64,000 bases of DNA from Gemmatimonadota bacterium (GTDB lineage: Bacteria; Gemmatimonadota; Gemmatimonadetes; Gemmatimonadales; GWC2-71-9). Position numbers and translations under genes: made by a program. Under the pieces are notes generated by a model that was not told the origin of the DNA, did no database searches, and worked only from the letters and a program-made list of their open reading frames with translations. Numbering within the stretch: the stretch's first letter is position 1; the number at the start of each line of letters is the position of its first letter. Location: positions 24,725-88,724 of the forward strand of contig JBDHKN010000026.1 in NCBI GenBank assembly GCA_039586365.1, given 5' to 3'. Of the stretch, positions 16,719 through 32,511 are shown in pieces.

Positions 16719-17564
16719 TTAGAACATGCGCTCTGGGAGGATGATTGCACGAAGCACCAGCCGGCCCTCGCCAATTAGGCAAGGTTGCTGGATCGCCCCT
16801 GCCGCCGTGACAGTTCCCGTCACCGTGAGAACGCGCCGCGACGACGTGCGTACGGTCCAAGGGATTGTCGTAACATGGCCCGACGCCACAAGGGCGGCAG
16901 CGCAGGCTACGGCCCCCGTTCCGCAAGCGAGTGTCTCTGCCTCGACCCCTCGCTCATAGGTCCGCATCGCCCAATCGGATCCTGCCGGCGACACGAAATT
17001 GACATTGGCTCCCAGCGGCGCGACCGCCGCATGATTGCGTAGCTGCCTGCCCCGCCGCTCTACGTCAATGGCCGCCACGTCTGCAACCAGCAGAACCAAG
17101 TGGGGCACACCAACGGTCGTGAAGTGAACCGAGTGCTCACCTTCGCGTCGTTCGATGCCGACCGGGCTGCTCAGCTCGGGCGTGATCCCCAGCTTCAGCT
17201 CTGAGCGCTGTTCCGGACCCGGCAGCGCTCTCGTGAGCATCTCTCCGGCGTCCGTCTCGAGCACCATTTCATCAGCACAAACCAGCTCGAGCCAGCGAGC
17301 CAAGCGAGTGGCACATAGTGTTCCATTCCCGCACATGGGCGCCCTGCAGCCGTCACTATTGAAGAAGTGGAACCGAACATGATTCGAAGGGCCCCCCGGC
17401 TCGAGTATCGCGAATCCGTCCGCTCCCAAACCGTTCCTGCGGTCACAGATCTCACGGATGCGAACGGCGTCCCACGTTTCCGGCGGGTTTGAGCGACCGT
17501 CTGCGAACACGAAATCGTTGCCCGAGCCCGTCATCTTGTAGAGGACGACGCCACCAACGTCCAT
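16719..17564 (-). CDS. dapF: Diaminopimelate epimerase
   Basis: KMTGSGNDF, GADG, MCGNG, GVPH, ERGVEAETLACGTGA. Confidence 0.96.
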   Translation of the reverse strand: MDVGGVVLYKMTGSGNDFVFADGRSNPPETWDAVRIREICDRRNGLGADGFAILEPGGPSNHVRFHFFNSDGCRAPMCGNGTLCATRLARWLELVCADEMVLETDAGEMLTRALPGPEQRSELKLGITPELSSPVGIERREGEHSVHFTTVGVPHLVLLVADVAAIDVERRGRQLRNHAAVAPLGANVNFVSPAGSDWAMRTYERGVEAETLACGTGAVACAAALVASGHVTTIPWTVRTSSRRVLTVTGTVTAAGAIQQPCLIGEGRLVLRAIILPERMF

Positions 17565-18286
17565 CACAGCCGCCCTGCCAACGCCTGCAGCCGTAGACGC
17601 CAAACCATCCAGATGGCTTCTCGCACAATTGCTCCGGACATCTTGCTCTCGCCTTCGGCTCGATCGACGAACAGGACGGGAATCTCTCGGATCCGGAATC
17701 CCTTGCGTTTGGCCCTGAAGCTCATTTCAATCTGAAACGAATATCCATTGGACCTGACGGCATCCAAGTCGATGGCCTCCAACACCTTGCGCCTAAAGCA
17801 CTTGAAGCCCCCGGTGGCGTCCCACAGTCGATGCCCTGTGACGATCCGGGCATAGATGTTCGCTGCGTAGCTGAGTAGCAGCCGACCCATGGGCCAGTTG
17901 ACTACCGTTACTCGCCCCTCCAAATAGCGCGAGCCCAGCACCAGGTCGGCCTCGCCAATTGCCGCAAGGAACTCCGGAAGATGCTTCGGATCGTGCGAAT
18001 GGTCGGCATCCATTTCGAAGATGTAGTCGTAGTCCCGGTCCAGAGCCCAGCGAAAACCTGACAAATAGGCCGTGCCCAGCCCCAGCTTGACCTCTCGATG
18101 GATTACCTTGATGCGCGGCTGCTGGCGCGCCATTTCGTCGGCCAGCGCACCAGTGCCATCCGGTGAATTGTCGTCTACGACGAGTACGTCAATCCTCTCA
18201 TCTTGAGCCAGAACCTCAGGCACAATCTGCCCCAGATTACTGGCCTCATTGTATGTGGGGATGACCACGAGGGCCTTCTCAGGCAT
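17564..18286 (-). CDS. Polyprenol-monophosphomannose synthase-like GT2 (DPM1/Ppm1 type)
   Basis: VIPTYNE, DDNSPDGT, GLGTAY, EMDADHSH, DATGGFK, GYSFQIE, G.SKMS. Confidence 0.92.
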   Translation of the reverse strand: MPEKALVVIPTYNEASNLGQIVPEVLAQDERIDVLVVDDNSPDGTGALADEMARQQPRIKVIHREVKLGLGTAYLSGFRWALDRDYDYIFEMDADHSHDPKHLPEFLAAIGEADLVLGSRYLEGRVTVVNWPMGRLLLSYAANIYARIVTGHRLWDATGGFKCFRRKVLEAIDLDAVRSNGYSFQIEMSFRAKRKGFRIREIPVLFVDRAEGESKMSGAIVREAIWMVWRLRLQALAGRL

Positions 18287-20687
18287 TGCTCCTCCGACGG
18301 GCAAGAGGCGGCAGCACCAGACCCAGACAGACCAGCAGTACGCCTGCCAGAGTGACCGTCCTGCCCACGTGGTAGTCCCGGCTATCGAACCATAGCTCGA
18401 CGTCGCGCGCTCCTGCCGACACGGGAATCGTGAGCATCGAGACATTGCCGCGGATCACTTCAACAGGGACTCCGTCTACCGCTGCTTGCCAGTCCGGATA
18501 CCAGTTCTCGGCGATCACTAGATACGCCTCCTGATCAGCTGGCGGCTCGATCCGCAGCCTCATCCGGCCCGTTTCCCACGAGTCAAACGTCACCGAGTTG
18601 TCCAGCGCTTCGTAGACTCCCGAAAGCGGTGGGGGTTCGAGGTTGGCAGCGGGATCGAGCAGCACGAACAGGTCAGCCGAGAACCGCGGATCAATCACGG
18701 TGACGATGGCTTGATCGTCGGGCGCCTTCACGGCGGCCGGCAGCAAGCGAGCATAGCTGGCAGGCTCCCGTCGGCTATACAGGTCGACCGTTCCTCCGGC
18801 GGAGCTCGTGACTCCGCTCAGGGCCGGCTGGTACCGCTCCGCGAATCCGGCCAGTGCCTGCCCGATGTCAAACCCGCTCGGCACGATCACATGCTCGATA
18901 GCGTAAAGGTCCCACAGTGCAATGCTGCCTAAAACATTGCGCCACTGGTTCTTACCACCCATCAGCTCATCGAACCGATGAAGTTCCATTCCGTGGTGGC
19001 CCAGCAGCTGCGGAATATCGTGGGCCATCAGACTCGACCCCGGATAGTTGCCCCCGGTCTCTGCCAAGTTCAGGATCCTGTAGGGCTGAGGCGTGGCTTG
19101 AATCTGTCGGATAACCTCGTCCGGGGCATGTAGTTCGTGCTGCACTCGACTGAACACCCAAAAGTTTCGCGAGTTGCGCCACAGGTCCCCGCTCACGATC
19201 AGCGCCAGCCCGAGACTCACGACTGAAACAGCCCTCAGGTGCCCCCTCAGCCATGCCCACGCTAGCACCCCCAGGAGCAGCAGCGCGCCCCCACTGCCAA
19301 TCGCGCCCGCCATGATGGCAGATCCCGACCCGGCAGCTACGCCGGCCACCGCCATGCCGTACTCCTGCTCTATTCCCTGCGCCAAGAACGTGGCAATCCC
19401 ACCGAAGACACTGGCCAAGGCCAGGAGCACAACGAGTGCCCCGATGCCCAGCCAGGCAACCACGTGTCGATTCCCTTCCCTTCTCAGCAGCCGGTCGACC
19501 CCGAGCCCGGCGAACACGGCCATGATCAGAGCCACCACATAGAGCGCCATCCCGGGCGCCCGGGTTTGCTTCACGTAGGGCACGACAGCATACCAAAGAC
19601 GATAAAACGGGGTTGACGAACCGAGTGTAACGAGCAGAAAGAGGACCCCGATTCCACCGAGCCACAGCACCAACCTCTTCCGGTCACGAGTTGCCGCTCC
19701 CAACACGGCCAGGGCGACCAGCGGGAGACCCAGATACTCTGAATGCAGTTTCAGACCATTCGAGCCCCAATACGTCCGGCTCCCGCTGTCTCCCACAAAC
19801 CGGGATAGGAAGAACTCCGGTACATGCTCCCACGGAATTGCGAACGAGGTTGCGCCTTCAAAGCCGCGATAACTCTCCGCCCGCGGGGAATAGGGGATGT
19901 ATTGCCAGAACGGCCACAGCTGGATCGCGCTAATCAGGAATCCTACCACCACTGCGGCGAACGCCAGGCATATGTCCGCAATGCGACTCTGAATCGACCT
20001 ATCGCCAGACTCCCCGAACGTCAGGTAAAGGGTGAAAAAACCCGCCGCGATCAACATGTACTGGGTCATCTGCACTTGGGGGCTGAGCAGGGCTAGGCCC
20101 ACGGTCAGCGACAGCAGCGCATACCCCTCAAGCTTGCGTTCACGGATTGCCAGGAGCAACGCCAGCAACGCCAGGGGCAGCAAAGTGGTGACGTACAGCT
20201 TGCCGTCGTGCCCCGGCTGGACATATGAACCGATTACCCCAGCCAGTTGGTATCCCAGCCCTCCTACCACGGCCCCGGTCCACGAGATTCCCAGCCGCTT
20301 CAGCAGGAGGTACGCGAAGAAGCCGGCCAGCACGTAGTGCACGGCGAATCCCAGGTCCATTGCGAACGCGGTGGGTAGTAACAGCCGAATCCAGGCGGTA
20401 GGATAGAAGATGTCACCGTGGGATCCGGCGATGTAGGGAAGCCCACCGAAAATGTAGCCGTTCCACTGTGGGATGTGGCCCAGCGCTCGCCAGTGCTCAG
20501 CCTGCCAGTGCCTCCACACGTAACCAGTTGCGTATTGGTCGCTGAGCGGGCCGGCTAGTAGTTGCCCAGTCCACATCGGCAGCGAGAGAATCACGATCCA
20601 GAGCGTGCACAGCCCGAGCGCCGCCAGAGTGGGCCAGGGCGGCTCGAAGGACTGACCGTTCCCCGCATTGGTAGCAGTACTAGTCAC
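18279..20687 (-). CDS. YfhO-family GT-C multi-pass membrane glycosyltransferase
   Basis: IPQWNGYIFGGLP, FYP, many TM helices, C-terminal YLVIAENWYPDW.A.VDG plus final TM. Confidence 0.85.
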   Translation of the reverse strand: MTSTATNAGNGQSFEPPWPTLAALGLCTLWIVILSLPMWTGQLLAGPLSDQYATGYVWRHWQAEHWRALGHIPQWNGYIFGGLPYIAGSHGDIFYPTAWIRLLLPTAFAMDLGFAVHYVLAGFFAYLLLKRLGISWTGAVVGGLGYQLAGVIGSYVQPGHDGKLYVTTLLPLALLALLLAIRERKLEGYALLSLTVGLALLSPQVQMTQYMLIAAGFFTLYLTFGESGDRSIQSRIADICLAFAAVVVGFLISAIQLWPFWQYIPYSPRAESYRGFEGATSFAIPWEHVPEFFLSRFVGDSGSRTYWGSNGLKLHSEYLGLPLVALAVLGAATRDRKRLVLWLGGIGVLFLLVTLGSSTPFYRLWYAVVPYVKQTRAPGMALYVVALIMAVFAGLGVDRLLRREGNRHVVAWLGIGALVVLLALASVFGGIATFLAQGIEQEYGMAVAGVAAGSGSAIMAGAIGSGGALLLLGVLAWAWLRGHLRAVSVVSLGLALIVSGDLWRNSRNFWVFSRVQHELHAPDEVIRQIQATPQPYRILNLAETGGNYPGSSLMAHDIPQLLGHHGMELHRFDELMGGKNQWRNVLGSIALWDLYAIEHVIVPSGFDIGQALAGFAERYQPALSGVTSSAGGTVDLYSRREPASYARLLPAAVKAPDDQAIVTVIDPRFSADLFVLLDPAANLEPPPLSGVYEALDNSVTFDSWETGRMRLRIEPPADQEAYLVIAENWYPDWQAAVDGVPVEVIRGNVSMLTIPVSAGARDVELWFDSRDYHVGRTVTLAGVLLVCLGLVLPPLARRRSNA

Positions 20688-21649
20688 GGTACCTCATCAG
20701 GTGATGAGATGGACGATGCGACAGACGGTGATCTTCCGCAACCGAGCAGAAAGGGAGCTGCTGCCGCGAGTTCCGCAGCCGTCCACAACAACCTCGAGGC
20801 AATGGCCAATGCCGCTGCCAAACGGGCACCCACCAATCCTGTGAGCATCAGCACCATCACACCCTCACGGGCTCCCAACCCGGCAGGAGCCACGGCGACG
20901 AGGAACCCTACTATGTAGGCGCTACTGAAGATGCCAACCGCCTGCAGTAAACTCATTCCTGCACCAGGGGCCAGTCCTTCTGCCAATAGCAGGAACGCGA
21001 TGCCGTAGCCGACCCAGGCTACCAGATTCGCTCCTAAAGCGGCCAGCATTACGTGGGGTGGTACAATGCTAAGCTGGGGAATCCGGCTGGGAGAGAGCCT
21101 ATGGAGCCAGTTCAGAGCGGGCTGCCAGGTGAGTGAGAGAGCAGCGGTCACCGCGAGCGCGCCAACCATGAAAACGCCCAACATTCCTCCAACCCCGATC
21201 GTCTCCCTCAGGCCTGCACTGGCGGTGCCGGCAACCACGAGCACCCCACTGCTGAGAGCCAACGCCTGGAGCACTAGGGCTGCTGCCACGGCGGCAGCAG
21301 CCTGCACGCCGGCCTGGCGCGCCAGAGCCGCGGCGCCCACGACCGCCCAAACTTTCCCAGGTACGTACTTGCCTAGGCTGGCCAGTAGCCAAATGCGTGC
21401 TGCCCTTAGGAACGGCAGCGTCTCACCGTAGGCTACCACGACCCGTCGCCAGCCCTCTATGAGAACCGCAAATGATCCGAGCACCACCATGAGACTGCCA
21501 AGTACTGCCGGAACTGACAGATCGAAGTCCACTTGCTGCGCCCGCAGGTCCGACCAATTGGTCACCAGCGAGCGAACAGCCAGCACAACGACGACCACAG
21601 CGATCGTGGCCTGCAGGGCCCTCCAAGCGGTGCGCCGTACCACGGTCAT
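20684..21649 (-). CDS. Flippase-like membrane protein (LPG synthase TM/UPF0104 domain)
   Basis: SLGKYVPGKVW and PAGLGAREG motifs; ATGA overlap with upstream stop. Confidence 0.85.
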   Translation of the reverse strand: MTVVRRTAWRALQATIAVVVVVLAVRSLVTNWSDLRAQQVDFDLSVPAVLGSLMVVLGSFAVLIEGWRRVVVAYGETLPFLRAARIWLLASLGKYVPGKVWAVVGAAALARQAGVQAAAAVAAALVLQALALSSGVLVVAGTASAGLRETIGVGGMLGVFMVGALAVTAALSLTWQPALNWLHRLSPSRIPQLSIVPPHVMLAALGANLVAWVGYGIAFLLLAEGLAPGAGMSLLQAVGIFSSAYIVGFLVAVAPAGLGAREGVMVLMLTGLVGARLAAALAIASRLLWTAAELAAAAPFLLGCGRSPSVASSISSPDEVP

Positions 21650-23109
21650 GAGCGTTTGGCGGGCCACGACAGCTCGAGCACCGGTCGCCCAGCGCCATCC
21701 TCCAACACGAGCGGTGACCCATGTGCCGTGTCCGCCGAGAGCTCGAGTCGTCCGTCCTCCGATACCGTCGTGGCACATACGCTGCGCCGCGCGACCCTCC
21801 ACGAGACCAGCTCGGCGAGTGGCGCCGCAAAGGCACCTTGCGACATCACGTTGCGCACCATGTCACTCAGCGCTGCGAACGCGCCCGGGAATCCCAGCGG
21901 TGCCGTCAGGTTGGGGTGCCACAGGCCTACCCAAAGCCCCTCCTGAGCCCTGGCAGTATGCACCAGATCCAGCCCGTCCCGAGCCCAGGCCAGCGGATCC
22001 TCTTCCTTGGCGTACTTGCTGAGAGCGCGGTCCATCCAGGCGAGCGGTACCTCCTCCAGGGCGGCTGCCACACCGTATTGCGCATCCCAGCCGGGCACCG
22101 TGTCTGACAACCCCAAGCGAAAACCGTTGCGGTCCGAGAAGCCGTATGTGGCATCGTAGCTGAAACCGGCCGCCGTCATCAGTCTGTTGGTATGACCCGG
22201 CCGCATCCGCAGAAAGTGCTGGCGGATTCCGGTCACCGGCTGCCCCGTAACCTGCTCGAGCCGAGCCCGCTCCGCCGCCATGAGATCGCCATCGACCATG
22301 GTGGCGAAGCTCCCGTGCAAAGCCACCTCGTGATCGTGTCCCCTTAACAGTTCGATTATGCGGCGTGCGCGACGACTTTCCGGCCGATAGGTGACGTCGC
22401 CCTTGAGCAGAGTTGCCGCCGTGGGGACTCCCGCCATCACGAACCAAGTCGACCTCACTCCCAACTCGTGCTCGAGGGCCAGAATCCACCTTACGCCGGC
22501 CAACACCGGATCGCCTCTTACTGCCTTCATGGATTCTCGCAGCACCCCGGCCGCACCGGATACGTTGCCGCGAGCCAGCAGCTCCGTCAGCCGCAGTCCT
22601 GTGAACAAAGGCCACAGCGAGACGACGTCCACATCGTGCGTGAATCCGACGGCCCAGCGCTTACCGGCCGGCCACGGGGCCAGACAGCGAAACACCCTGC
22701 GACCCGCCGCCGCCTGGACCACCAACCGGAAGGCAGCCGCAACCAGTGAGACCACCGGGGTGCGTTCGAGGCCGGCCTGCACTAGGGGATTCTCGCTGGC
22801 CGGTACGCGGCCATGTTTGTCCCTTGCGGCGGAGGATTGCTCGGCCGCCGCCGTGGCCAAGTCGGCTGTGGTCTCGAGCAATGAACGCTGGACTGTAACG
22901 ATTGCATCGCGTTGACCAAACAACGAATCCGGGTTCCGCAGCTCGTCAGGCGCCAAGCCGCTGCGCTCGTCCGGCTCGATTTCCAGTCGGACCACGTCGG
23001 CGGTAGGGTCGTCCACGGGAAGGAGCCGGGAAAGATCGACCAGCAGGCCCAGCCCGAATCTCTGTTTGGGATCCAGGCGTTCGGTCACCGATCGCGCTAC
23101 GTGAATCAC
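21646..23109 (-). CDS. Polysaccharide deacetylase (CE4/NodB-like) family protein; start uncertain
   Basis: FTHDVD, STWF, EVALHGS, GIRQHFLR, YDAT.G, GFR.G, LWH. Confidence 0.8.
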   Translation of the reverse strand: MIHVARSVTERLDPKQRFGLGLLVDLSRLLPVDDPTADVVRLEIEPDERSGLAPDELRNPDSLFGQRDAIVTVQRSLLETTADLATAAAEQSSAARDKHGRVPASENPLVQAGLERTPVVSLVAAAFRLVVQAAAGRRVFRCLAPWPAGKRWAVGFTHDVDVVSLWPLFTGLRLTELLARGNVSGAAGVLRESMKAVRGDPVLAGVRWILALEHELGVRSTWFVMAGVPTAATLLKGDVTYRPESRRARRIIELLRGHDHEVALHGSFATMVDGDLMAAERARLEQVTGQPVTGIRQHFLRMRPGHTNRLMTAAGFSYDATYGFSDRNGFRLGLSDTVPGWDAQYGVAAALEEVPLAWMDRALSKYAKEEDPLAWARDGLDLVHTARAQEGLWVGLWHPNLTAPLGFPGAFAALSDMVRNVMSQGAFAAPLAELVSWRVARRSVCATTVSEDGRLELSADTAHGSPLVLEDGAGRPVLELSWPAKRS

Positions 23110-23512
23110 GACCAGCCGGTGCCACGTCCTTGTGCACCACGCTGTGGGCACCTACAACAGCACCGCGCCCCACCGTGACCCCGGGCAACACCGTGACGCC
23201 AACGCCGAGCCAAGCATCGGCTTCGATCACGATGCGGCCATGTTGGACCGGAGCGACTTGGCGGATCAACGAGTTGTTAGGATGCGAAGAGGTCACCAGT
23301 GTTACGTGTGGCGCAATGCTCACCCGATCACCGATCGCCAGATTCCCGCTGTCAGCGAGTTCCTCAACGACCAAGAAGTCGTCGGCTATGTAGACATCCC
23401 GCCCGATCTCGAACCCGCACCACCGCAGTAGCCGAACGCGCCAAGCTGGAAAGAATGCGTTTCGTGCCCAGCGTTTGAGCACCTTTTTTCGCAGCCGCCT
23501 CCAGAAGTGCAT
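22946..23512 (-). CDS. Hexapeptide-repeat O-acyltransferase with an abnormal C-terminus (possible frameshift or deletion near 23118)
   Basis: IGDRVSIAPHV, IEADAWLGVGVTVLPGVTVGRGAVVGAHSVVHKDV; family resemblance ends after KDVAP. Confidence 0.8.
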   Translation of the reverse strand: MHFWRRLRKKVLKRWARNAFFPAWRVRLLRWCGFEIGRDVYIADDFLVVEELADSGNLAIGDRVSIAPHVTLVTSSHPNNSLIRQVAPVQHGRIVIEADAWLGVGVTVLPGVTVGRGAVVGAHSVVHKDVAPAGRDSRSAIGDRTPGSQTEIRAGPAGRSFPAPSRGRPYRRRGPTGNRAGRAQRLGA

Positions 23513-23516
23513 TATT

Positions 23517-24563: not shown

Positions 24564-25725
24564 CGTAGAGTTCCAGGAAGACTGCCGCTGTTCGCTCCGG
24601 CGCGTGCAGCTCCCGCACTCGCTCACGACCGGTTGCTGTCAGCCTCAGTCTCAGGTCGTCGTCAGCCAGCAGCCGCTCCAATTGGTCGGCCAAGTCCAGC
24701 GGGTCATCCTCCTTGGTGAGCAGTCCGGTATGCTCGTGCTGGATCACCTCGGGGATACCACCTACCCTCGTGCCAACGACGGCACACCCAGCCAGCAAAG
24801 CCTCGACCAGAGTCAACCCGAGGCCCTCCGCCTTGGCCCGCGAGGGCAGCACAGTCACGCTGCTGCGGCCGTATTCGTCGGGCATCCTGCTCTGGTCCAC
24901 GAAATCAGACCACTCGACCATGTCAGTGATAGCGAGCCGACCGGCCAGGAGCTTGAGCGGGGCGGCCTCCGAACCCCGTCCAAGCACCCTGAGGCTGCAG
25001 GCCACCCCGCGCTGCTTGAGCACCGCGAGGGCCTCGAGCAACACGTCCACTCCCTTGCTCGCTACGAGATTCCCAGCGTACAGGATGCGCGGAGGAGCCA
25101 CCTTGTCGAGCTGGAGTCCTTGGCGGTATCGCTCCACGTCGATCGGCATTCTCGTTACCTGTACTGCAACCTTGTCCGCTCGGAGCAGTCGCTCCAGATC
25201 TCGCGCCAGGAAGTCGGATACGGCAGTCACCTTCCCTGCCTGGGCCAACACTCTCCGAGCCCGGGCGCGCAGGATCAGGGACCGCTCGATCAGTCGCACG
25301 TCGCTGCCGTGACTGGTCACCAGGTAGGGGCAACCGGTTTGAGACGCGATCCAGCCGCCGGGAATCCACCAGTGAGCGTGGACTACATTCGGCTGCCAGT
25401 CAGCGACCACCTGGGCCACTGCCCGGCGGAAGCCGCGCCAGAACAGTGGCAGCACCGCAACTCTCGCCGGGTGCAACAGGGCCGCCAAACTCACATCACC
25501 CACGAACGCCGCGCGTTCCCAGCGCTCGGAAGCGTAACGGAATCGCGTGACTTCCACACCGTTGTCGCACTCGCTCTCCTGGGTGGCAGGTGAGTGCGGT
25601 GCCACTACCTGCACGCCCCACCCCGCGTCCGCTACACTCCACGCCAACCTGGCTACGAACGCGCCCGCGGGATCGTCCCGGAACCTCGGGTAGTTGTGTG
25701 TGACGATGAGAACACGTCTGTTCAT
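24541..25725 (-). CDS. Glycosyltransferase family 4
   Basis: HAHWW, HGSD, KGVDVLL, EGLGLTLVEA, GGIPEVI. Confidence 0.93.
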   Translation of the reverse strand: MNRRVLIVTHNYPRFRDDPAGAFVARLAWSVADAGWGVQVVAPHSPATQESECDNGVEVTRFRYASERWERAAFVGDVSLAALLHPARVAVLPLFWRGFRRAVAQVVADWQPNVVHAHWWIPGGWIASQTGCPYLVTSHGSDVRLIERSLILRARARRVLAQAGKVTAVSDFLARDLERLLRADKVAVQVTRMPIDVERYRQGLQLDKVAPPRILYAGNLVASKGVDVLLEALAVLKQRGVACSLRVLGRGSEAAPLKLLAGRLAITDMVEWSDFVDQSRMPDEYGRSSVTVLPSRAKAEGLGLTLVEALLAGCAVVGTRVGGIPEVIQHEHTGLLTKEDDPLDLADQLERLLADDDLRLRLTATGRERVRELHAPERTAAVFLELYGDLAQRH

Positions 25726-26966
25726 CTTATTACGTGGACCCACCCGCTCTCATCAGCTACGAGCGCCGTCTGACCAAACAGGTCAAACGCAACCCGGCGG
25801 GGCTGCCCACCAGTGCTGATCGTCCTGCTCACTTGTCCCGACTCACGATCGATCACGAGCACCTGGCCCAGGCCTGGTACGGTCATGTAGAGCACTGCCC
25901 CACCCGGACTCTGCGCTAGTCCGAAGCCACCCAGCGCCCCGGAGGCAAACGACCGGACCGTGCCCGACGACAGCGTGACGACTTTGATGGGACCGGCTTC
26001 GTCAGCAACATAGAGTTCCGATCCGTCAGGCGACACCACCAAGCCCTGCGGGGTGGCCGTCGGCATCTCGAACACGCGCCGGCGCAGGTAGCCGGCGAAC
26101 TCCGTCACTGCGCTGCCCAGCGACGCACTCACGTAGAAACAGTCCTCCTCGTGGGGATGAAACACGATATCGTTGGGCGCCCCCTCCACTTGCATGACCG
26201 ACACCAATGAGTCAGCCGTCACGTCGATCCCCAACACCCAGTCATGACCGCTGGTCACCCACAGTTCCGTGCCCCCGGGATTCATGGTCACGATCAGCGG
26301 ATTGATGCCCAGCATGTAGCGACCGATCTCGACGTCTCGCCCCACGTCGACCACACTCACGCTCTGATCGAACTGATTGCTCACGTATGCAGTCGTGCCG
26401 GCATGATCGAACGTGACCGACGTGGGTACGCTTTGGACGGCGACGCCACCGGAGAGGGAGAGCGCAGGAAGATCAATGCGTGCTAGCTGCGCCGCGTCGA
26501 GCTGCGTTACGTAGGCAACTCCCTGCCAAGAGATCGCGATTCCAAAGGGTCGCGAATCCAGCGGCAGGCTAGTCGTCAATACGCCTTCCGGGTGAGTGAA
26601 GACCGCTACCGGAACCAGCACACTGGCCGAACCACTCGTTACCGTCAGGGAGGATGAGCCAATCCCCCCTGCCGACGAGACGGTTCCGGCGGAGGAAACC
26701 ACCACCAGGAACGGGTCGTTGGAACGAAACGCCGGCACCGCGTCAGCGATCACCGCGCTGTCCTCGTCAAGCACGGTGACCTCCAGTTGAACCCAGCCGG
26801 CCACCTCGAGGGGGACGCTGTCGGGACGGACAATTAGGTACGCCGCGTTCACCGCCGGATCGGTGGCGCCATCCCCACAAGCCAACGCAGCGAAAACGGA
26901 CAGAGCGGCTACCAGTGCCGCAGGGCAGTATGAGCCCGGAGGTGTCCTGCTATCCTTGGCGACCAT
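25722..26966 (-). CDS. Lipoprotein with Ig-like domain and YncE/YVTN-type beta-propeller
   Basis: Lipobox ALAC; propeller blades PFGIAIS..AYVT, AYVSNQ, VSPDGSELYVA. Confidence 0.8.
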   Translation of the reverse strand: MVAKDSRTPPGSYCPAALVAALSVFAALACGDGATDPAVNAAYLIVRPDSVPLEVAGWVQLEVTVLDEDSAVIADAVPAFRSNDPFLVVVSSAGTVSSAGGIGSSSLTVTSGSASVLVPVAVFTHPEGVLTTSLPLDSRPFGIAISWQGVAYVTQLDAAQLARIDLPALSLSGGVAVQSVPTSVTFDHAGTTAYVSNQFDQSVSVVDVGRDVEIGRYMLGINPLIVTMNPGGTELWVTSGHDWVLGIDVTADSLVSVMQVEGAPNDIVFHPHEEDCFYVSASLGSAVTEFAGYLRRRVFEMPTATPQGLVVSPDGSELYVADEAGPIKVVTLSSGTVRSFASGALGGFGLAQSPGGAVLYMTVPGLGQVLVIDRESGQVSRTISTGGQPRRVAFDLFGQTALVADESGWVHVIR

Positions 26967-27846
26967 TCCTCTCGACCAGGCGCTGGTCGACAGTCTGTGC
27001 GAGTCGCCGGATCTCTTCCCGCTGTCCCGCCAACAGCTCCCCTACGAAGCCGAATCCGAACAAGGCGACCACCAGAGCGACGACCCCGACCAGGAATCCG
27101 AGCAAGAACAGAGTGGCACCCAAGCCACCGAAGAACAGCAGCGGTTTGCGTCCAAAGCGGAGCTGAAACCAAACCGAAAGCAGGTCGAATACGCCAACCG
27201 GAATCCGCCCCAGGCCGAACTTCGACTCACCGGCACGGCGCGGATGCAGCGTCACCGGACGCTCGACCAAACGGAAACCCTCGGCGGTGGCAACCACGGC
27301 CATGTACCTGTGCCAGTCGGGACGCGACGGAATTGCGTCCATGACTTCGCGCCGGTAGGCTTTGACTGCGTTCAGGTCGGAAACTCGCACACCGAACATC
27401 CAGCGGCACAGCCGGTTGTACACCTGGGAGACGAACGCTTTCTCGTACTGCCCCTGTTTGGCGCCCGTCACCATGTCGGCGTCGCCGCGGCGGATCGGTT
27501 CCACCAACGCGGGGATCTCCGCGGGAAGGAACTGCAGATCGGCCGGGTAGAAGACCAGGATCCTTCCGCTGGCTACTTCTCCGCCCGACCTCAATGCCTC
27601 GGCTATGCCGCGTCGGGTCCGGTGCGTCACCGTTCTGACAAAACCATGTTCGGCGCGGATGCGGCGCAGCACCTCCGGCGTGTCGTCAGCGCTGCCATCG
27701 TCTACTACGACCACTTCGAACGAGAACTCAGCCGCACCGAGAGCCTCGCTGCACTGGCGGATGAATTCGGGTAGGTTCTCTGCCTCGTCCTTGGCTGGTA
27801 CCAGTACGCTGACTTCGACAGGTTCTGCTGTCTGCGTCAGCGTCAT
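26950..27846 (-). CDS. GT2 glycosyltransferase, ArnC/DPM-like with C-terminal TM region
   Basis: VPAKDE, VDDGSAD, ADLQF, HRY, R.AGESKFG. Confidence 0.9.
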   Translation of the reverse strand: MTLTQTAEPVEVSVLVPAKDEAENLPEFIRQCSEALGAAEFSFEVVVVDDGSADDTPEVLRRIRAEHGFVRTVTHRTRRGIAEALRSGGEVASGRILVFYPADLQFLPAEIPALVEPIRRGDADMVTGAKQGQYEKAFVSQVYNRLCRWMFGVRVSDLNAVKAYRREVMDAIPSRPDWHRYMAVVATAEGFRLVERPVTLHPRRAGESKFGLGRIPVGVFDLLSVWFQLRFGRKPLLFFGGLGATLFLLGFLVGVVALVVALFGFGFVGELLAGQREEIRRLAQTVDQRLVERNGRQG

Positions 27847-29303
27847 ACGCGCTTGCGCATGCGCGCCGGGAGGATGTTCAACTGATCCCGGTATTTGGCG
27901 ACGGTCCTCCGTGCGATTTGGATACCGCGTTCCTTGAGTGCCTTGACGATTGCTGAGTCGGTGAGGGGAGCGGACACATCCTCTTCGGATACCAGTTTTT
28001 GAATCTGTGCCTTGACGGCCCGCGAACTGGCATCCTCACCGGTCGTCGTGCCCAGGCTGCTCGAGAAGAAGAACTTGAGTGGATAGACACCGCGCGGCGT
28101 CTGCACGTATTTCTGGCTCGTCACCCTGCTCACCGTCGACTCATGCATCTCGATGACATCGGCAACTTCGCGCAACGTGAGTGGGTGTAGATGTTCAACT
28201 CCCTTTTCGAAGAAGCCACGCTGCCGATCCACGATGAAATTCATCACCTTCAGCATGGTCTGGCGTCGCTGCTCGATGGCCTGTATCAGCCAACTGGCGC
28301 TGTTCAATTTGTCTGTAATGAACTCTCGGTTCTCGCCGACGAACTTCTTCTTGTCACCAGCAATCTGCTGATAGATACGACTGATCCGCAGCCGCGGTAC
28401 TCCGCCATCGTTGAGGAAGACCCGGTAGTGGCCGTCGATCTTCTCGACCGTCAAATCGGGCACCACATAGGTGTCGCCTGCGCTCATGTGCCGGATACCC
28501 GGTTTCGGATCGAGTCTGGCCAATTCATCGGCAGCATCCTGAACCTCGCGCGGGTCGAGCTGGTAACGCTTGGCCAATTCGCTCCAGCGATGCGCAATGA
28601 GGTCGTCGAACGCCTCAGAGACCAGCTTGTAGGTGAGAGTGTCTTGCTCCCCCAGCTCCCTCATCTGTAGCAGCAGGCACTCTCTAAGATCACGCGCCGC
28701 TATCCCAGGTGGATCCAACAACTGCATGATCCGGAGCAACTCCTCTGCCTCTTCAACGGTGAAGTTTGCCGCGGCTTCATGCTCCACAGCAATGACGGGT
28801 GGAGCTTCCCCCTCCAGCAGGAGTCTGTTGGCTTCGTCTACGATCTCCTCCAATGTCGCGCGGAGATAGCCATCATCAGCGATGTTACCGATGAAGAAAT
28901 CAGCCAAGAAGCGCTGCCGGGCAGTGAGATCGAGCAACTGTAGCTGCTCGTAGAGGTAGTCGCTGAGGTCGTGCAGCTCAACGGGAGTTGGCTCATAGTA
29001 CTCCCGCTCTTCGAATTCGGCACGCATGCCTCCCGTGCTGAACCCGTCCAGGATGATGTCTTCCCAATTGACTTCGTCGTCGCCCTTGGACTCTTCCTTT
29101 TCCTGCTCCTTCTCAGCAGTGGTCTGTTCTTCCTCCTCGTCCGGTTCTTGCATTTCCAGGAAGGGATTGGTGAGCAGTTCCTGCTTGAGGTGTTGCTGCA
29201 GGTCCAACATTGGCATATACAACAGATCCATCGCCTGATAGAGGCGAGGATTCATCCTGAGTTCTTGCCTGAGTACCGCGCTCTGCTGTAACGTAGTCTT
29301 CAT
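27843..29303 (-). CDS. rpoN: RNA polymerase sigma-54 factor
   Basis: ARDLRECLLLQ, HESTVSRV, RpoN box ARRTVAKYR. Confidence 0.98.
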   Translation of the reverse strand: MKTTLQQSAVLRQELRMNPRLYQAMDLLYMPMLDLQQHLKQELLTNPFLEMQEPDEEEEQTTAEKEQEKEESKGDDEVNWEDIILDGFSTGGMRAEFEEREYYEPTPVELHDLSDYLYEQLQLLDLTARQRFLADFFIGNIADDGYLRATLEEIVDEANRLLLEGEAPPVIAVEHEAAANFTVEEAEELLRIMQLLDPPGIAARDLRECLLLQMRELGEQDTLTYKLVSEAFDDLIAHRWSELAKRYQLDPREVQDAADELARLDPKPGIRHMSAGDTYVVPDLTVEKIDGHYRVFLNDGGVPRLRISRIYQQIAGDKKKFVGENREFITDKLNSASWLIQAIEQRRQTMLKVMNFIVDRQRGFFEKGVEHLHPLTLREVADVIEMHESTVSRVTSQKYVQTPRGVYPLKFFFSSSLGTTTGEDASSRAVKAQIQKLVSEEDVSAPLTDSAIVKALKERGIQIARRTVAKYRDQLNILPARMRKRV

Positions 29304-30523
29304 GCAGCCGCTCCCAACCGTTCCCGTAACCGGCTCGTCAGAGTAGGCCCTAGATAAAGATCGGCCACTTGGTCGTTGAACACCAGTTCCCGAACCGTGC
29401 CCGCTACCTGGACCTTCCCCTCGAACATGATATATGCCCGGTCAACGATATCCAGGGTCTGTTCCACGTTGTGGTCGGTAATGAGCACGCCGATACCGCG
29501 CCGCCGCAGGCCGGCCACTATGGTCTGAATGTCGTTGACGGCGATCGGATCCACCCCGGCAAACGGCTCGTCCAGCAACATGAACTTGGGTGACGTGACC
29601 AGTGCTCTGGTGATTTCCAGGCGACGTCTTTCACCGCCTGAGAGTTTGTAGGCCGGCACCTTTCTGAGATACTTGATTGACAGCTCGTCCAACAGCGTCT
29701 CGAGACGGCTGTTCCGCTCGTCGTCCGACACCGGCAGTGTCTCGAGGATTGCCTTGACATTATCCTCTACGGTGAGCTTGCGGAACACTGAAGGCTCCTG
29801 AGCCAGGTAGCCAATGCCCCTGCGAGCCCGCTGGTACATGGGGAGCATCGAGATGTCGGCACCATCGATCTCGATCTTTCCCGCATTGGGTTTGACCAAT
29901 CCCGTGATCATGTAGAAAGTGGTGGTCTTGCCTGCACCGTTGGGACCCAGCAACCCCACTATCTCTCCCTGTTGTACATACAAGTCCACGTCGTCCACGA
30001 CCTTGCGCTTGCGGTATATCTTCGTCAACCCAAAGCCCGACAGGACGCTGCCGGTCAGCTCCGGCGTCACGGCCACTACCGGTGCCTCGATCTCCCGCAG
30101 GGACTCCAAGGCCAGATCCATCAATTCCTCATACAGGGTGGCGCGATCTTCGCTCAGCAGCTGCCAGACCTCCGGAACCACCCGCACGCCTTGCTCGGAT
30201 ACCTGCGTGTCTGACAGGGTCCACGCGCCATGGCTGTAGCTCACGCTCACGAGACCCGGTGCAATGATTCCCGCGGTTGCCAGCCGCGGCAGGACGGAAG
30301 ACAGCAGGTGGTGGCGCACCTCGTCGACCGAGAGAGTGCCTCGTTGGGTGGCAGCATCACCGCGCTCACGGCGTTGCAGCTCAAGGTGGGCCTCGCGGTA
30401 TGCTACGGCCAGGTCGTCGAACTTCGCAGCACCCGATTCGTCAGCGACCTTGAGCAGAGCGGCCGCAGCCAGAGGCGACGAGGAATCCCCGCCACCAAAC
30501 AAGGAGAACAACTGGCTGTTCAT
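29300..30523 (-). CDS. lptB: LPS export ABC ATPase LptB with an extra ~155-aa N-terminal domain
   Basis: GPNGAGKTT, YLAQEPSVFRKL, LSGGERRR, LLDEPFAGVDP, ITDHNV; upstream of rpoN. Confidence 0.93.
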   Translation of the reverse strand: MNSQLFSLFGGGDSSSPLAAAALLKVADESGAAKFDDLAVAYREAHLELQRRERGDAATQRGTLSVDEVRHHLLSSVLPRLATAGIIAPGLVSVSYSHGAWTLSDTQVSEQGVRVVPEVWQLLSEDRATLYEELMDLALESLREIEAPVVAVTPELTGSVLSGFGLTKIYRKRKVVDDVDLYVQQGEIVGLLGPNGAGKTTTFYMITGLVKPNAGKIEIDGADISMLPMYQRARRGIGYLAQEPSVFRKLTVEDNVKAILETLPVSDDERNSRLETLLDELSIKYLRKVPAYKLSGGERRRLEITRALVTSPKFMLLDEPFAGVDPIAVNDIQTIVAGLRRRGIGVLITDHNVEQTLDIVDRAYIMFEGKVQVAGTVRELVFNDQVADLYLGPTLTSRLRERLGAAA

Positions 30524-31974
30524 GAGGGCGGCTTCTTTATGGGTTCCAGATACACACCGTCAGCTTGTCCAATCACATCCACTCTCTCCACAGTCTCATT
30601 GGTGAACAGCGCGATGATAGTCAGTCCTCGCGAGTAGTTGAACGCCGGGGCCGCAGTACTGTCAGCTTCGTCGAAGATCTTGTAGAAGGCCTTGGCGTTG
30701 CCCCGAGCAATCAGCTCGGTCAGAGTACGAGCGCCCGTCTCCGTGCTGTCGAACCGCGCTACCACCGTGTCACCCGATATCCAGTCGGCTTCACGCTGCC
30801 ACGAGCCGACGTCAGGTGCTAACGAGTCAACCACAGCCGCCAACGAGTCGCCTTCTGTCGCCAGAGAGTCGACTTCCGTTACCAGCGAGTCGCCTTCAAT
30901 GGCCAACGAGTCGACCTCAGCTGCTGACGGGTCGACTTCGTTCGCTACCGAGTCAACCACAGCCACTACGGTCTTCGCGAGAGCGTTGCCGAAGCCCCGC
31001 ATCTCAGTAAGTTGCTGATCCGGCGTGTCCACCGCCAGAGAATCAGCCGTAATCGTATACTCCTGTGACCGCGCCTCCGGATGGGTGGAGTCCCCCCACG
31101 CCAGCGCCGTTTGGATCAAGTCGTCGGCCACCGAGAAGGCGATTGTGTCGGCGACGATGTCCCACTCGTTGCTCGTGGCACGAGCACTGTCCTGTGCCTG
31201 CACCCAGTCGAGCTTGTCGTCCACCAGATGGAACGCTATGCTGTGACCGTTAAGGTTGAACCCCAGAGAATCCTGCGAAGAGGCCTCCGCTGCCCCAACG
31301 ATCGTCCCTTCCCCTCCCTCGATATCGAGTGAGGCGCTATCGCCCTTGGCAGCAAAATCGCTGCGGGTGATAGTGACATTCCCTACAGCCCAAGTGGAGT
31401 TGCCCAGCAACCGCACTCGATCTGCCAGGATTATATATGGCTCTGCGCTGTCAGCTTCTGTGCGGTAGACCACAGTCGGCCGCAGGGTGGCCAGCAACTC
31501 GGCCGGCTCTCTGAGCCCCGCTACCTCCCGCAAATAGGTCAACCTCGGTCCCGTCAATACGGTGCCGGTGGCCCGGTTGGTCAGTCTAACGTGCCCCTGG
31601 GCCTCTAGCCGCTCACCTCGTTCGTGGTAAGTAGCACGATCGGCGATGAGTTCAGCAGTGGAATCCTGGAAGCGCACCCCTCCGACGAATTCAATGCGAC
31701 CAGCCGATACGAAACGGGCGACACTGTCCGCGTGAGCGTTCCACACAACCACCCCGGCGCTAGGTGTGCCCGGATTGGCCACGCAAGACCACCACACCCC
31801 TCCCGACCCGTACTCCCGAATCTGTCCTGTCGCAGTCACAATCCGGCGCCCAACCCTGCTGCTGTCCAGCGTCACCAGGCAATCGGAAGACTGCTGAGCT
31901 ACCGCCGGCTGCGCAGCAGACACTGCTACCAGCAGCGCGATTGTCGCTCCCGGCACCGCAACAGCAGGACGCAA
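30520..31974 (-). CDS. LptA/OstA-like periplasmic beta-jellyroll protein
   Basis: Signal peptide, OstA-like repeats (GGVRFQDST, AQGHVRL, GNVTI), located between lptC and lptB. Confidence 0.75.
   Translation of the reverse strand: MRPAVAVPGATIALLVAVSAAQPAVAQQSSDCLVTLDSSRVGRRIVTATGQIREYGSGGVWWSCVANPGTPSAGVVVWNAHADSVARFVSAGRIEFVGGVRFQDSTAELIADRATYHERGERLEAQGHVRLTNRATGTVLTGPRLTYLREVAGLREPAELLATLRPTVVYRTEADSAEPYIILADRVRLLGNSTWAVGNVTITRSDFAAKGDSASLDIEGGEGTIVGAAEASSQDSLGFNLNGHSIAFHLVDDKLDWVQAQDSARATSNEWDIVADTIAFSVADDLIQTALAWGDSTHPEARSQEYTITADSLAVDTPDQQLTEMRGFGNALAKTVVAVVDSVANEVDPSAAEVDSLAIEGDSLVTEVDSLATEGDSLAAVVDSLAPDVGSWQREADWISGDTVVARFDSTETGARTLTELIARGNAKAFYKIFDEADSTAAPAFNYSRGLTIIALFTNETVERVDVIGQADGVYLEPIKKPPS
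30818..30963 (-). repeat. Seven imperfect 21-bp in-frame tandem repeats encoding (E/V)(V/G)DS(L/V)xx
   Basis: GAGTC on + at 30824, 30845, 30866, 30887, 30908, 30950 and GGGTC at 30929. Confidence 0.9.
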
Positions 31975-32511
31975 CTAACGGCTCCCGGGCTCTCGCACCG
32001 AGCCTGCCAACGTCGTCCCCTCTACCTCCCGGAAGTCGGGATCGGCGATGAAGCTCTCACCGGTCAGGTGTTCGCCCGGGGCGTCATACACGAAGGCACA
32101 CGGCCCAGTGATCTCATCGTGATCCTGGCTGTAGGTGATGGAGCACGTCGTGAGGCGGCGCCCATCGGGTGTCACCGCAAGGACGCTGTCCCTTGCCTCC
32201 ATGTTGCCGGTCCGCCAATCGTAGGTACCTTCGCGTGCCGTCAGCGTCGACCGCCGTTCGCCCAGCGCTGAATAGAACTGGACTTCGAGTACATACAGCT
32301 CCCATTCCTCTCGTTCGGGATAGTGAAACGCTGAATCGGCCTCGAGTTCCACTCGCTGGACCCCCTCCACGGTGATGAACTTCCTGAAACCGTACGCCAC
32401 TTGATCTGCCGAATCAGGCAGTACCGACGAAGTCGGTGGTTGCTCGGGATCGGCACAGGCCCACAGGGCAGTGGCAAGCAGAGCTATAGCTATCTGTCGT
32501 CTAATGGGCAC
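31975..32511 (-). CDS. lptC: LPS export protein LptC (lipoprotein-like)
   Basis: LWAC lipobox-like; STLTAREG.YD, L.T..ITY; position after kdsC. Confidence 0.8.
   Translation of the reverse strand: MPIRRQIAIALLATALWACADPEQPPTSSVLPDSADQVAYGFRKFITVEGVQRVELEADSAFHYPEREEWELYVLEVQFYSALGERRSTLTAREGTYDWRTGNMEARDSVLAVTPDGRRLTTCSITYSQDHDEITGPCAFVYDAPGEHLTGESFIADPDFREVEGTTLAGSVREPGSR

Follow-up and report, generated by a model that had tools for sequence, protein, structure and literature searches.

A conserved YfhO locus in Gemmatimonadota and its candidate role in Bacteroidota-type O-glycosylation of exported proteins

The closest described system is the protein O-glycosylation of Bacteroidota, for which a D-(S/T)-hydrophobic motif has been defined; the accessible text of that study calls the motif unique to the phylum and reports similar enrichment in Fibrobacterota (PMC12871550). 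According to the same text, the glycan carries mannose at its reducing end, the genes for the oligosaccharyltransferase (OTase), the ligase, the core flippase and the core sugars are undiscovered, homologs of O-mannosylation enzymes are suggested as search targets, and the LFG locus is not conserved across Bacteroidota. Glycosylation site preferences are given in the available part of PMC10897501. The available part of a preprint predicts in silico, on the basis of fold, conservation and essentiality, that YfhO is the OTase of Bacteroidota (bioRxiv 10.64898/2026.07.27.740950), and a YfhO-like family linked to STT3/PglB has been described (PMC10584680, available part). Here we analyze a yfhO locus in a stretch of 64,000 nucleotides from a Gemmatimonadota bacterium (hereafter the window; positions 24,725-88,724 of contig JBDHKN010000026.1 of the source genome, G000; window coordinates are used throughout). 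The first-pass annotation of this DNA proposed that the YfhO module may glycosylate exported proteins at D-S/T, a reading that the sequence tests support once the motif and the size of the effect are corrected and the module is trimmed. Judging from these sequence data, the source organism very probably performs Bacteroidota-type O-glycosylation, and we lean towards the YfhO module being the transferase of a D-S-directed system.

The motif bias was assessed across the proteome of the source assembly (5.44 Mb, 86% complete). Genes were called with a self-trained model (4577 genes) and with a second caller, and proteins were classified by hydrophobicity rules; the contrast reported here (second caller) is between 788 exported and 1741 cytoplasmic proteins, with 1605 membrane or ambiguous proteins excluded. 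Relative to composition, the observed/expected ratio (O/E) of D-S-[AILVMT] was 1.57 in exported proteins (714/456; 1.45-1.69) and 1.02 in cytoplasmic ones (674/661), while D-T-[AILVMT] gave 0.88 and 1.05, respectively, and the whole motif D-[ST]-[AILVMT] 1.23 and 1.04. With the first caller, the values for D-S-[AILVMT] were 1.46-1.61 and 1.02. Bootstrapping over proteins yielded an exported/cytoplasmic ratio of 1.54 (1.35-1.75) for D-S-[AILVMT] and 0.83 (0.73-0.95) for D-T-[AILVMT], so that the enrichment proposed for the whole motif persists after composition correction for D-S, at about 1.5-fold, and is lost for D-T. Control motifs were flat in exported proteins (S-D-x 0.93, and N-S-x as well), and in statistical, not biochemical, terms Asp is not replaceable by Glu (E-S-x 0.84) and Gly is disfavoured at the third position (D-S-G 0.74). 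Other third residues of exported D-S-x ranked as L (2.03), T (1.78), A and V (1.42 each) and I (1.24), a preference contained in the Bacteroidota set. In an unbiased ranking of 8000 tripeptides D-S-L came second, behind S-P-D, which we take to be a beta-propeller repeat motif. The enrichment in exported proteins is real, Ser-specific and about 1.5-fold, and its motif is D-S-[LTAVI]. N-glycosylation of the STT3/PglB/AglB type was rejected as an explanation, given that no STT3 (PF02516) match was found in the 86%-complete source genome and that N-[^P]-[ST] was not enriched in exported classes (O/E 0.95-0.96).

This effect is much smaller than first thought. Earlier hand counts of D-[ST]-[AILVMT] proved exact, both for exported proteins (18 sites in the 484 amino acids (aa) of the LptA-like protein, 7/465 in a tetratricopeptide repeat (TPR) protein, 3/178 in LptC, 3/414 in a YncE lipoprotein, none in a YfgM-like protein) and for cytoplasmic ones (UvrC 2/602, RpoN 2/486, PyrG 2/546, FabF 0/413, SucC 0/379). 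The contrast built on them, about 2 versus 0.25 sites per 100 aa, does not extend to the proteome, where the corresponding uncorrected rates are 0.383 and 0.266 for the whole motif and 0.247 and 0.133 for D-S-[AILVMT]. We rejected the 8-fold difference as a product of selecting extreme proteins; two predicted cytoplasmic proteins of the same locus that had been omitted, the GNAT and the CE4 protein, hold 4 sites in 369 aa and 3 in 501 aa.

In single-pass kinases, the sites lie predominantly on the periplasmic side of the membrane. In 25 single-pass Ser/Thr kinases, the sequon O/E was 3.44 after the helix (65/18.9) and 0.86 in the kinase part before it (10/11.7), with a bootstrap ratio of 4.0 (2.2-8.3) and the same direction in 19 of the 25 proteins. 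The outer domains of at least 25 such kinases form the most sequon-rich class found in this genome. Ten pairs of exported homologs gave a D-S O/E of 1.01 for Escherichia coli versus 3.74 for the source organism; six pairs with S. meliloti showed no D-S enrichment on either side. The strongest sequon outlier of the proteome is the LptA-like protein (p 9e-13), six of whose 18 sites fall within one 7-residue tandem repeat (residues 341-385). Across 26 aligned orthologs there are 351 sites; single sequences have 7-28, where 1.6-3.5 would be expected. Four near-invariant columns at jellyroll positions carry the motif in 21-25 of the 26 sequences, and 122 of the 351 sites stand in columns common to fewer than four sequences, many of them as tandem copies in low-complexity tails. 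Tandem sites outside folded domains also occur in the low-complexity tails and linkers of LptC, Pal and CpoB, as they do in those of LptA. Sites in Pal linkers were present in 11 of 15 Gemmatimonadetes genomes, 0/3 of other classes, 1/5 Zixibacteria-like or unlabelled genomes and 0/3 proteobacteria, a count that leaves out two further loci (unparsed). LptC is a poor marker because the E. coli protein likewise has 2 sites, and LptA and LptC were both discarded as clean markers since sites are also held by the jellyroll columns, by E. coli LptC and by the LptA of genome G379, in which no YfhO was matched.

The same scripts were applied to other taxa, with Proteobacteria as the only negative controls and with pooled training for the gene calls of genome G059 and Shinella. 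Four Bacteroidota records (78 exported proteins) showed a D-S O/E of 1.65 (61/37) versus 1.03 in cytoplasmic proteins, with D-T at 1.03, whereas Proteobacteria (E. coli, S. meliloti pSymB and Shinella; 119 proteins) gave 0.85 (40/47) versus 0.78. In strength and in its preference for Ser, the signal of the source organism matches that of Bacteroidota, a phylum known to glycosylate. Zixibacteria genome G301 reached 2.22 (80/36) versus 1.33, with D-T enriched as well, and 49 pooled Zixibacteria-like loci 2.12 versus 1.14. Because the Prevotella record taken alone is near-flat (31/31 for the whole motif), a small flat sample is no proof of absence. Records labelled Ignavibacteria or Terriglobales are unsuitable as controls for the groups they name: two that were checked share one phylum and have Zixibacteria-like scores. 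These two (loci L071 of G303 and L084 of G304) are labelled Ignavibacteriales and Terriglobales, and the labels look like automatic mislabels.

The genes of the locus are listed in Table 1. The gene order and coupling described before are present on the minus strand: from kdsC to dapF, 12 of 14 junctions overlap, one abuts and one has a 4-nucleotide gap. Besides kdsB/A/C and lptC/A/B in the window, lpxD, fabZ, lpxA and lpxB lie elsewhere on the same contig, which indicates that the source organism makes lipopolysaccharide (LPS). The earlier family calls hold, with YfhO matching PF09586 at 31.6 bits (cut-off 28.5; below cut-off in a six-frame genome search) and the 'flippase-like' protein being a member of PF03706 (LPG_synthase_TM), whose flippase role we presume from the family naming. 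The CE4 call holds as well, though on a match to VimE below cut-off, and the supposed O-acyltransferase is a hexapeptide-repeat acetyltransferase. The Ppm1-like protein has no transmembrane helix, and the best NCBIfam match of the ArnC-like GT2 is ArnC PRK10714 (E 7e-26, below cut-off). The hexapeptide acetyltransferase gene diverges from its ortholog in locus L033 after about residue 135 and overruns the CE4 gene by 143 nucleotides, so its 3' end may reflect a small deletion, a frameshift or an assembly error.

Table 1. Genes of the YfhO locus and candidate substrates in the window
Feature	Assignment	Position	Strand	Family evidence
YfhO-like GT-C glycosyltransferase, 802 aa	Core module; candidate protein O-glycosyltransferase	18279..20687	-	PF09586
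DPM1/Ppm1-like polyprenol-phosphate-sugar synthase (GT2), 240 aa	Core module; probable lipid-linked mannose donor synthase	17564..18286	-	PF00535
LPG_synthase_TM membrane protein, 321 aa, ~7 predicted helices	Core module; candidate flippase	20684..21649	-	PF03706, E 6e-10
GT4 glycosyltransferase	Core module, variable clade	24541..25725	-	PF00534/PF13439
ArnC/GtrB-like GT2, C-terminal membrane segment	Core module; second lipid-carrier glycosyltransferase	26950..27846	-	PF00535
CE4-like deacetylase	Accessory insert	21646..23088	-	NCBIfam VimE, E 1.9e-20, below cut-off
Hexapeptide-repeat acetyltransferase	Accessory	22946..23512	-	PF00132
FemAB-like GNAT	Accessory	23517..24563	-	PF13480; TIGR03019, E 3.7e-36, below cut-off
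YncE-like beta-propeller lipoprotein, 3 sequons	Accessory; candidate substrate	25722..26966	-	TIGR02276 repeats
Long LptA/OstA-like protein, 18 sequons (16 D-S, 2 D-T)	Candidate substrate	30520..31974	-	Weak PF03968/PF13100
LptC, 3 sequons	Candidate substrate	31975..32511	-	TIGR04409, over cut-off
lptB + rpoN	Housekeeping neighbours, outside conserved module	27843..30523	-	TIGR04406; sigma-54 Pfams
Exported TPR protein, 7 D-S sequons (p 6e-5 vs own composition)	Candidate substrate outside operon	4967..6364	+

Comparison of loci separates a conserved module from lineage-specific genes. The order kds-lpt-rpoN-GT2-GT4-(PF03706)-yfhO-ppm1-like-dapF is kept in 18 of 20 Gemmatimonadales 20-kb loci, the other two being stand-alone yfhO genes. 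The ArnC-like GT2 and the GT4 occur in all 18 syntenic loci (the GT4 reversed and weak in one), and among short loci the Ppm1-like gene follows YfhO downstream in 30/30 and the PF03706 gene precedes it in 26/30. Two of the 18 have GNAT, hexapeptide and CE4 genes together, a third has CE4 without the other two, and YncE is present in one; as core parts these four were rejected on synteny, being lineage-specific inserts. Of the glycosylation module as first proposed, GT2, GT4, PF03706, YfhO and Ppm1-like proteins therefore stand, and GNAT, hexapeptide, CE4 and YncE proteins do not. In 80 loci from other lineages, many of them cut by contig ends, the Ppm1-like gene was present in 57, GT2 in 49, GT4 in 26 and PF03706 in 15. 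Linkage to kds-lpt-rpoN, taken before as a feature of the module, was found only within one class: true lptA/rpoN neighbours appeared in just 6 other-lineage loci, all Gemmatimonadota, and the yfhO block is unlinked from lptB and rpoN in Zixibacteria G301, and from lptB also in those further Gemmatimonadota classes that were checked. Since the five-gene block is conserved in other lineages without lpt neighbours, it is older than its link with LPS transport. Two stand-alone yfhO copies without the module come from one genus of family f2 (L041, G134:C1:1419518-1421821; L042, G255:C1:2291925-2294198), and G255 carries a syntenic copy as well.

The probable donor synthase points towards mannose. 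Among 12 matches of the Ppm1-like protein in the plasmid collection, four were from Bacteroidota (with the best bit scores, 49-53% identity), seven from actinobacteria and one from Pseudomonas, and all five annotated matches are named polyprenol monophosphomannose synthase. Homologs about 50% identical exist in Bacteroides, Parabacteroides, Phocaeicola and Prevotella, and 18 of 26 chosen genomes gave a match to the gene. Several records of that collection are chromosomes or chromosome contigs, with a ribosomal protein operon or pyrG (L146, L188, L292, L294-L297).

The YfhO-like gene is present in 298 of 301 Gemmatimonadota genomes (mostly in single copy), in 41/41 genomes of the phylum of G304, which appears to be Zixibacteria, and in 38/41 of the Latescibacterota-like phylum of G302. 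The Gemmatimonadota denominator includes an unpublished genome, G155, one of the three without YfhO. In all three, the Ppm1-like gene and dapF are missing too, and in one the contig breaks off directly behind rpoN; they are thus probably assembly gaps and were set aside as a natural-loss test. Named homologs of the protein are from Gemmatimonadota. Its only match among 72,556 plasmid-collection records is a chromosomal yfhO of Bacteroides finegoldii beside ahcY/sahH, and the profile aligns with the sahH-adjacent YfhO of Bacteroides over residues 62-794 (probability 99.8, E 8e-28, 24% identity). A broad profile from the Fibrobacteres-Chlorobi-Bacteroidetes (FCB) group scored Bacteroidota YfhO at 295-377 bits, two paralogs at 337-369 and Microvirga proteins at 226-242; a Bacteroidota profile scored the FCB clade at 112-230, the paralogs at 65 and 118 and Microvirga at 62-74. 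In a quick midpoint-rooted tree of 38 rows (7 of 45 were dropped, and the outgroups, Microvirga and the two paralogs only, have long branches), Bacteroidota are sister to this clade (SH-aLRT 95). From these comparisons, orthology of the window YfhO with the sahH-adjacent YfhO of Bacteroidota is likely. All clusters retrieved from the ESM Atlas were YfhO clusters, and of the three best, two consist mostly of Chloroflexota. The Microvirga gene (L191:3973-6435), conserved across that genus and encoding D50, R269 and R376, adjoins a type I secretion system. In four relatives of 1227-1289 aa (P0215, P0218, P0245, P0255) the C-terminal part is a whole YfhO-like protein; in P0215 a PMT_2-type GT-C precedes it, which puts two GT-C enzymes in one chain.

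An AlphaFold2 model of the window protein (pLDDT 93.4, pTM 0.92) matched AftD best (Z 25.3, root-mean-square deviation (rmsd) 5.0 over 595 aligned residues), followed by STT3 (Z 21.6, rmsd 5.7 over 469), AglB (20.3), PglB (19.1), Pmt4 (17.4, over residues 14-512 only) and ArnT (16.9). The comparison with PglB, AglB and PMT that had been suggested thus yields, for the modelled protein, a GT-C fold; with AftD on top, the fold leaves the acceptor undecided. To our knowledge, Pmt has no D-S-x sequon. Residues D50, W75, R269 and R376 are invariant in 30/30 relatives, in 9/9 Bacteroidota YfhO and in four Microvirga proteins. D50 opens the first outer loop, where the GT-C superfamily has a conserved acidic residue, and this position suggests a catalytic role. 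D501, R537, a Trp at column 282 and a Glu at 288 belong to the FCB consensus and to Bacteroidota and are absent from Microvirga; the YfhO of the window itself carries Phe at column 282 and His at column 288.

It had been argued that an organism not expected to have lipoteichoic acid may direct YfhO to proteins. That step fails, since LPS is itself a target of diderm GT-C enzymes, ArnT among them; a protein acceptor is better argued from conservation, homology and elimination. For the last of these, the other GT-C candidates of the source genome are three PMT_2 and two Wzy_C proteins. An ArnT-like gene was found in 33 of 81 genomes and any PMT_2 protein in 67; six single-contig genomes gave no PMT_2 match, and Wzy_C was matched in two of five genomes, with no match in three of the six single-contig ones. 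The YfhO-like protein itself has a weak PMT_2 match and no Arnt_C match, and a different gene of the source genome matches PMT and Arnt_C. Among the GT-C families searched, only YfhO is universal. Part of the elimination argument, resting on genome G056, is weakened, as the enrichment there stems from two proteins. Further GT-C genes of the source genome are C91:16476-18188 (ArnT-like, patchy in the phylum), C69:35787-37355 and C62:1291-3237 (beside two GT2 genes).

The mechanism that we propose joins the observed sequon bias and its sidedness with the computed GT-C fold and the observed conservation and synteny of the module. By homology, the Ppm1-like GT2 would load a hexose, probably mannose, from a nucleotide sugar onto polyprenol phosphate at the cytoplasmic face. 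The ArnC-like GT2 and the GT4 might add or supply further core sugars, and the PF03706 membrane protein might flip the lipid-linked sugar. In the periplasm, YfhO, via its invariant Asp50, would transfer the sugar to D-S-x of exported proteins, and in some genera the accessory GNAT, acetyltransferase and deacetylase could perhaps tailor the glycan. More broadly, we tentatively suggest, at somewhat less than even confidence, that D-S/T O-glycosylation is ancestral to the FCB group, occurring in Gemmatimonadota and Zixibacteria besides Bacteroidota, and that this operon keeps the whole missing core: a synthase for polyprenol-phosphate-mannose, the PF03706 protein as flippase, and YfhO as a sequon-specific O-mannosyltransferase of a new GT-C class.

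Several observations weigh against the YfhO module as transferase, or against the sequon signal itself. Gene calls and export classes are crude, made with our own scripts, and on bootstrapping, the Proteobacteria (ratio interval 0.74-1.50) are not fully separated from the source genome (1.35-1.75). Eighteen kinases without a detected helix still show a tail O/E of 1.85, and ten two-helix sensors are not enriched in the loop (2/2.7), their tails holding 8/3.5 (few sites). Two YfhO-bearing genomes showed no clear enrichment in random samples (G059, 36/41=0.88; G302, 73/65=1.13), G350 gave 0.65 (9/13.8) on 12 proteins, and G056 fell from 1.86 to 0.77 without the two richest of its 28 proteins. 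YfhO-like genes also occur in Microvirga, and the top structural match, AftD, ahead of STT3, has a glycan acceptor. The Ppm1-like gene was not found (E 1e-40) in the YfhO-bearing, Latescibacterota-like G302, G368 and G381. Genome G379 of the Latescibacterota-like phylum, with no YfhO match (E 0.01) and no Ppm1-like match, nevertheless has a sequon-rich LptA (8 sites vs 1.6 expected; exported O/E 30/24.7=1.22, 0.82-1.74); the gene may be unassembled or recently lost, the LptA signal may be partly structural, or YfhO may not be the enzyme. G377 also lacks a YfhO match and has 13 LptA sites; an assembly gap is likelier there because its LptA is nearly identical to those of YfhO-bearing G302, G368 and G381. 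Finally, teichoic acids are the acceptors of those YfhO proteins that have been tested (PMC5836110, available part), and the available part of the preprint reports YfhO as absent from Porphyromonas gingivalis and some Alistipes (bioRxiv 10.64898/2026.07.27.740950), while P. gingivalis is described as glycosylating proteins (PMC8729774, available part).

Some of these points would fit a different division of labour, in which the sequon is glycosylated by another enzyme and the GT2-flippase-YfhO block is an Arn/Gtr/CsbB-type system decorating LPS or an envelope glycan. We regard this as unlikely. The class Gemmatimonadetes does have the block in one apparent operon with kdsBAC-lptCAB, with an ArnC-like GT2 and, in the window, an ArnD-like CE4, and the glycan acceptor of AftD, the LptA of G379 and the reported lack of YfhO in P. 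gingivalis point the same way. However, neither Zixibacteria G301 nor any of the further Gemmatimonadota classes checked has the block linked to lptB, the source genome has a separate ArnT-like gene with the patchy distribution of a typical LPS modifier, in contrast to the near-universal and mostly single-copy YfhO, and no other GT-C family searched is present in all sequon-bearing genomes. Less probable still is that YfhO acts as a 'ligase' or extender which adds sugar to a protein-bound core glycan and does not make the Ser linkage. The conserved Ppm1-like neighbour, which matches the reducing-end mannose of the Bacteroidota glycan, speaks against this role, and genomes without a PMT_2 or Wzy_C match keep the motif in Pal or LptA, which leaves no second candidate among the searched families. 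It gains some credit from the AftD-like architecture (residues 9-794), which fits a glycan acceptor, from the PMT_2-YfhO fusions seen in some relatives (P0215), and from the Bacteroidota model, which in the accessible text needs both an OTase and a ligase and identifies neither (PMC12871550).

We give similarly little credence to a purely structural or compositional origin of the D-S-x bias (jellyroll turns, helix caps, low-complexity repeats), or to another modification, unrelated to the locus. The jellyroll columns of LptA are what such an origin would produce, E. coli LptC and CpoB have 2 and 4 sites, the tails of kinases without a detected helix are enriched, and removal of the 23 richest exported proteins (at least 6 sites) lowers the O/E to 1.37 for D-S and to 1.08 for D-[ST]. 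It accounts poorly for the LptA sites in columns common to few sequences, many of them in tails, for sites inside helical Pal linkers (11/15 Gemmatimonadetes genomes against 0/3 proteobacterial), for the lack of bias in exported proteobacterial proteins and for a third-residue preference within the Bacteroidota set. On balance, we still favour the YfhO module as the transferase of the D-S sequon.

Two further features of the window were recorded. LptB (29300-30523, minus strand) has an N-terminal extension of about 160 aa without family match before its ABC domain (TIGR04406 starts at residue 164), and several Gemmatimonadetes families have open upstream frames resembling it. A DUF512 radical-SAM gene is coupled to der/engA at 8236-10883 (plus strand).

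A preprint has already predicted YfhO to be the Bacteroidota transferase. What is new here is the extension to Gemmatimonadota and Zixibacteria, together with a conserved operon from which a donor synthase and a flippase candidate can be named. The locus adds an independent type of evidence for YfhO, since its neighbourhood is kept in two phyla besides Bacteroidota, and its named partners (Ppm1-like and PF03706 proteins) reduce an open question on dominant gut bacteria to a short list of experiments. If the proposal is true, the origin of the system moves from Bacteroidota to a deeper ancestor, the scattered Bacteroides homologs are the core machinery sought since 2009, and glyco-engineering gains a bacterial O-glycosylation tag of three residues together with a defined enzyme for it. 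In the literature, with subscription journals mostly outside the search, no paper among those listed dealt with such a system in Gemmatimonadota or Zixibacteria or with a link of Ppm1 with YfhO; the accessible text of the Bacteroidota study contains no mention of Gemmatimonad-, FCB or YfhO, and its GTDB-wide figure may include these phyla (PMC12871550).

Among described systems, Bacteroidota O-glycosylation is the most similar. It shares with the source organism the enrichment of D-S-hydrophobic in non-cytoplasmic proteins, with Ser preferred and D-T flat (1.65 there, 1.57 here), sequon-rich TPR proteins and, by sequence reading, peptidyl-prolyl isomerase- and SecD-like ones, and homologous YfhO and Ppm1-like genes. 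It differs in the phylum, in that the system described here is known from sequence alone, in the third residue (L/T/A/V here, L/I in the Bacteroidota sample) and in gene neighbourhood, yfhO lying beside sahH and ppm1-like beside dihydroorotase in the records seen, whereas both are adjacent in the window. The YfhO of the Bacteroidota prediction has in common with ours the family, full-length homology, D50/W75/R269/R376 and phylum-wide conservation; that prediction, as far as its available part goes, covers Bacteroidota only and names no donor synthase, flippase or other phylum, and the proteins are 24% identical (bioRxiv 10.64898/2026.07.27.740950).

The other relatives share single elements with the locus. 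CsbB/GtcA/YfhO of Bacillus and Staphylococcus, which glycosylate teichoic acids, likewise combine a lipid-carrier GT2, a flippase and an outward-facing GT-C with a large loop before its last helix (PMC5836110, PMC11983588, available parts); their acceptor is a teichoic acid and their hosts are monoderm, and the window organism has kds, lpt and lpxA/B/D genes. The window YfhO probably belongs to the YfhO-like group that, in the available part of PMC10584680, clusters apart from B. subtilis YfhO. The Arn system of lipid A modification (ArnC/ArnD/ArnT/ArnEF) resembles the locus in its ArnC-like GT2, CE4, GT-C and membrane transporter adjoining LPS genes; here, in contrast, ArnT is a weaker fold match, a separate ArnT-like gene exists and the CE4 is accessory. 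In the O-mannosylation of actinobacteria by Ppm1 and Pmt, a Ppm1-like synthase (actinobacterial matches are 44-54% identical to the window protein) feeds a GT-C that modifies Ser/Thr of exported proteins (PMC5882110, available part); in the window the GT-C is not a Pmt, and YfhO would take its place.

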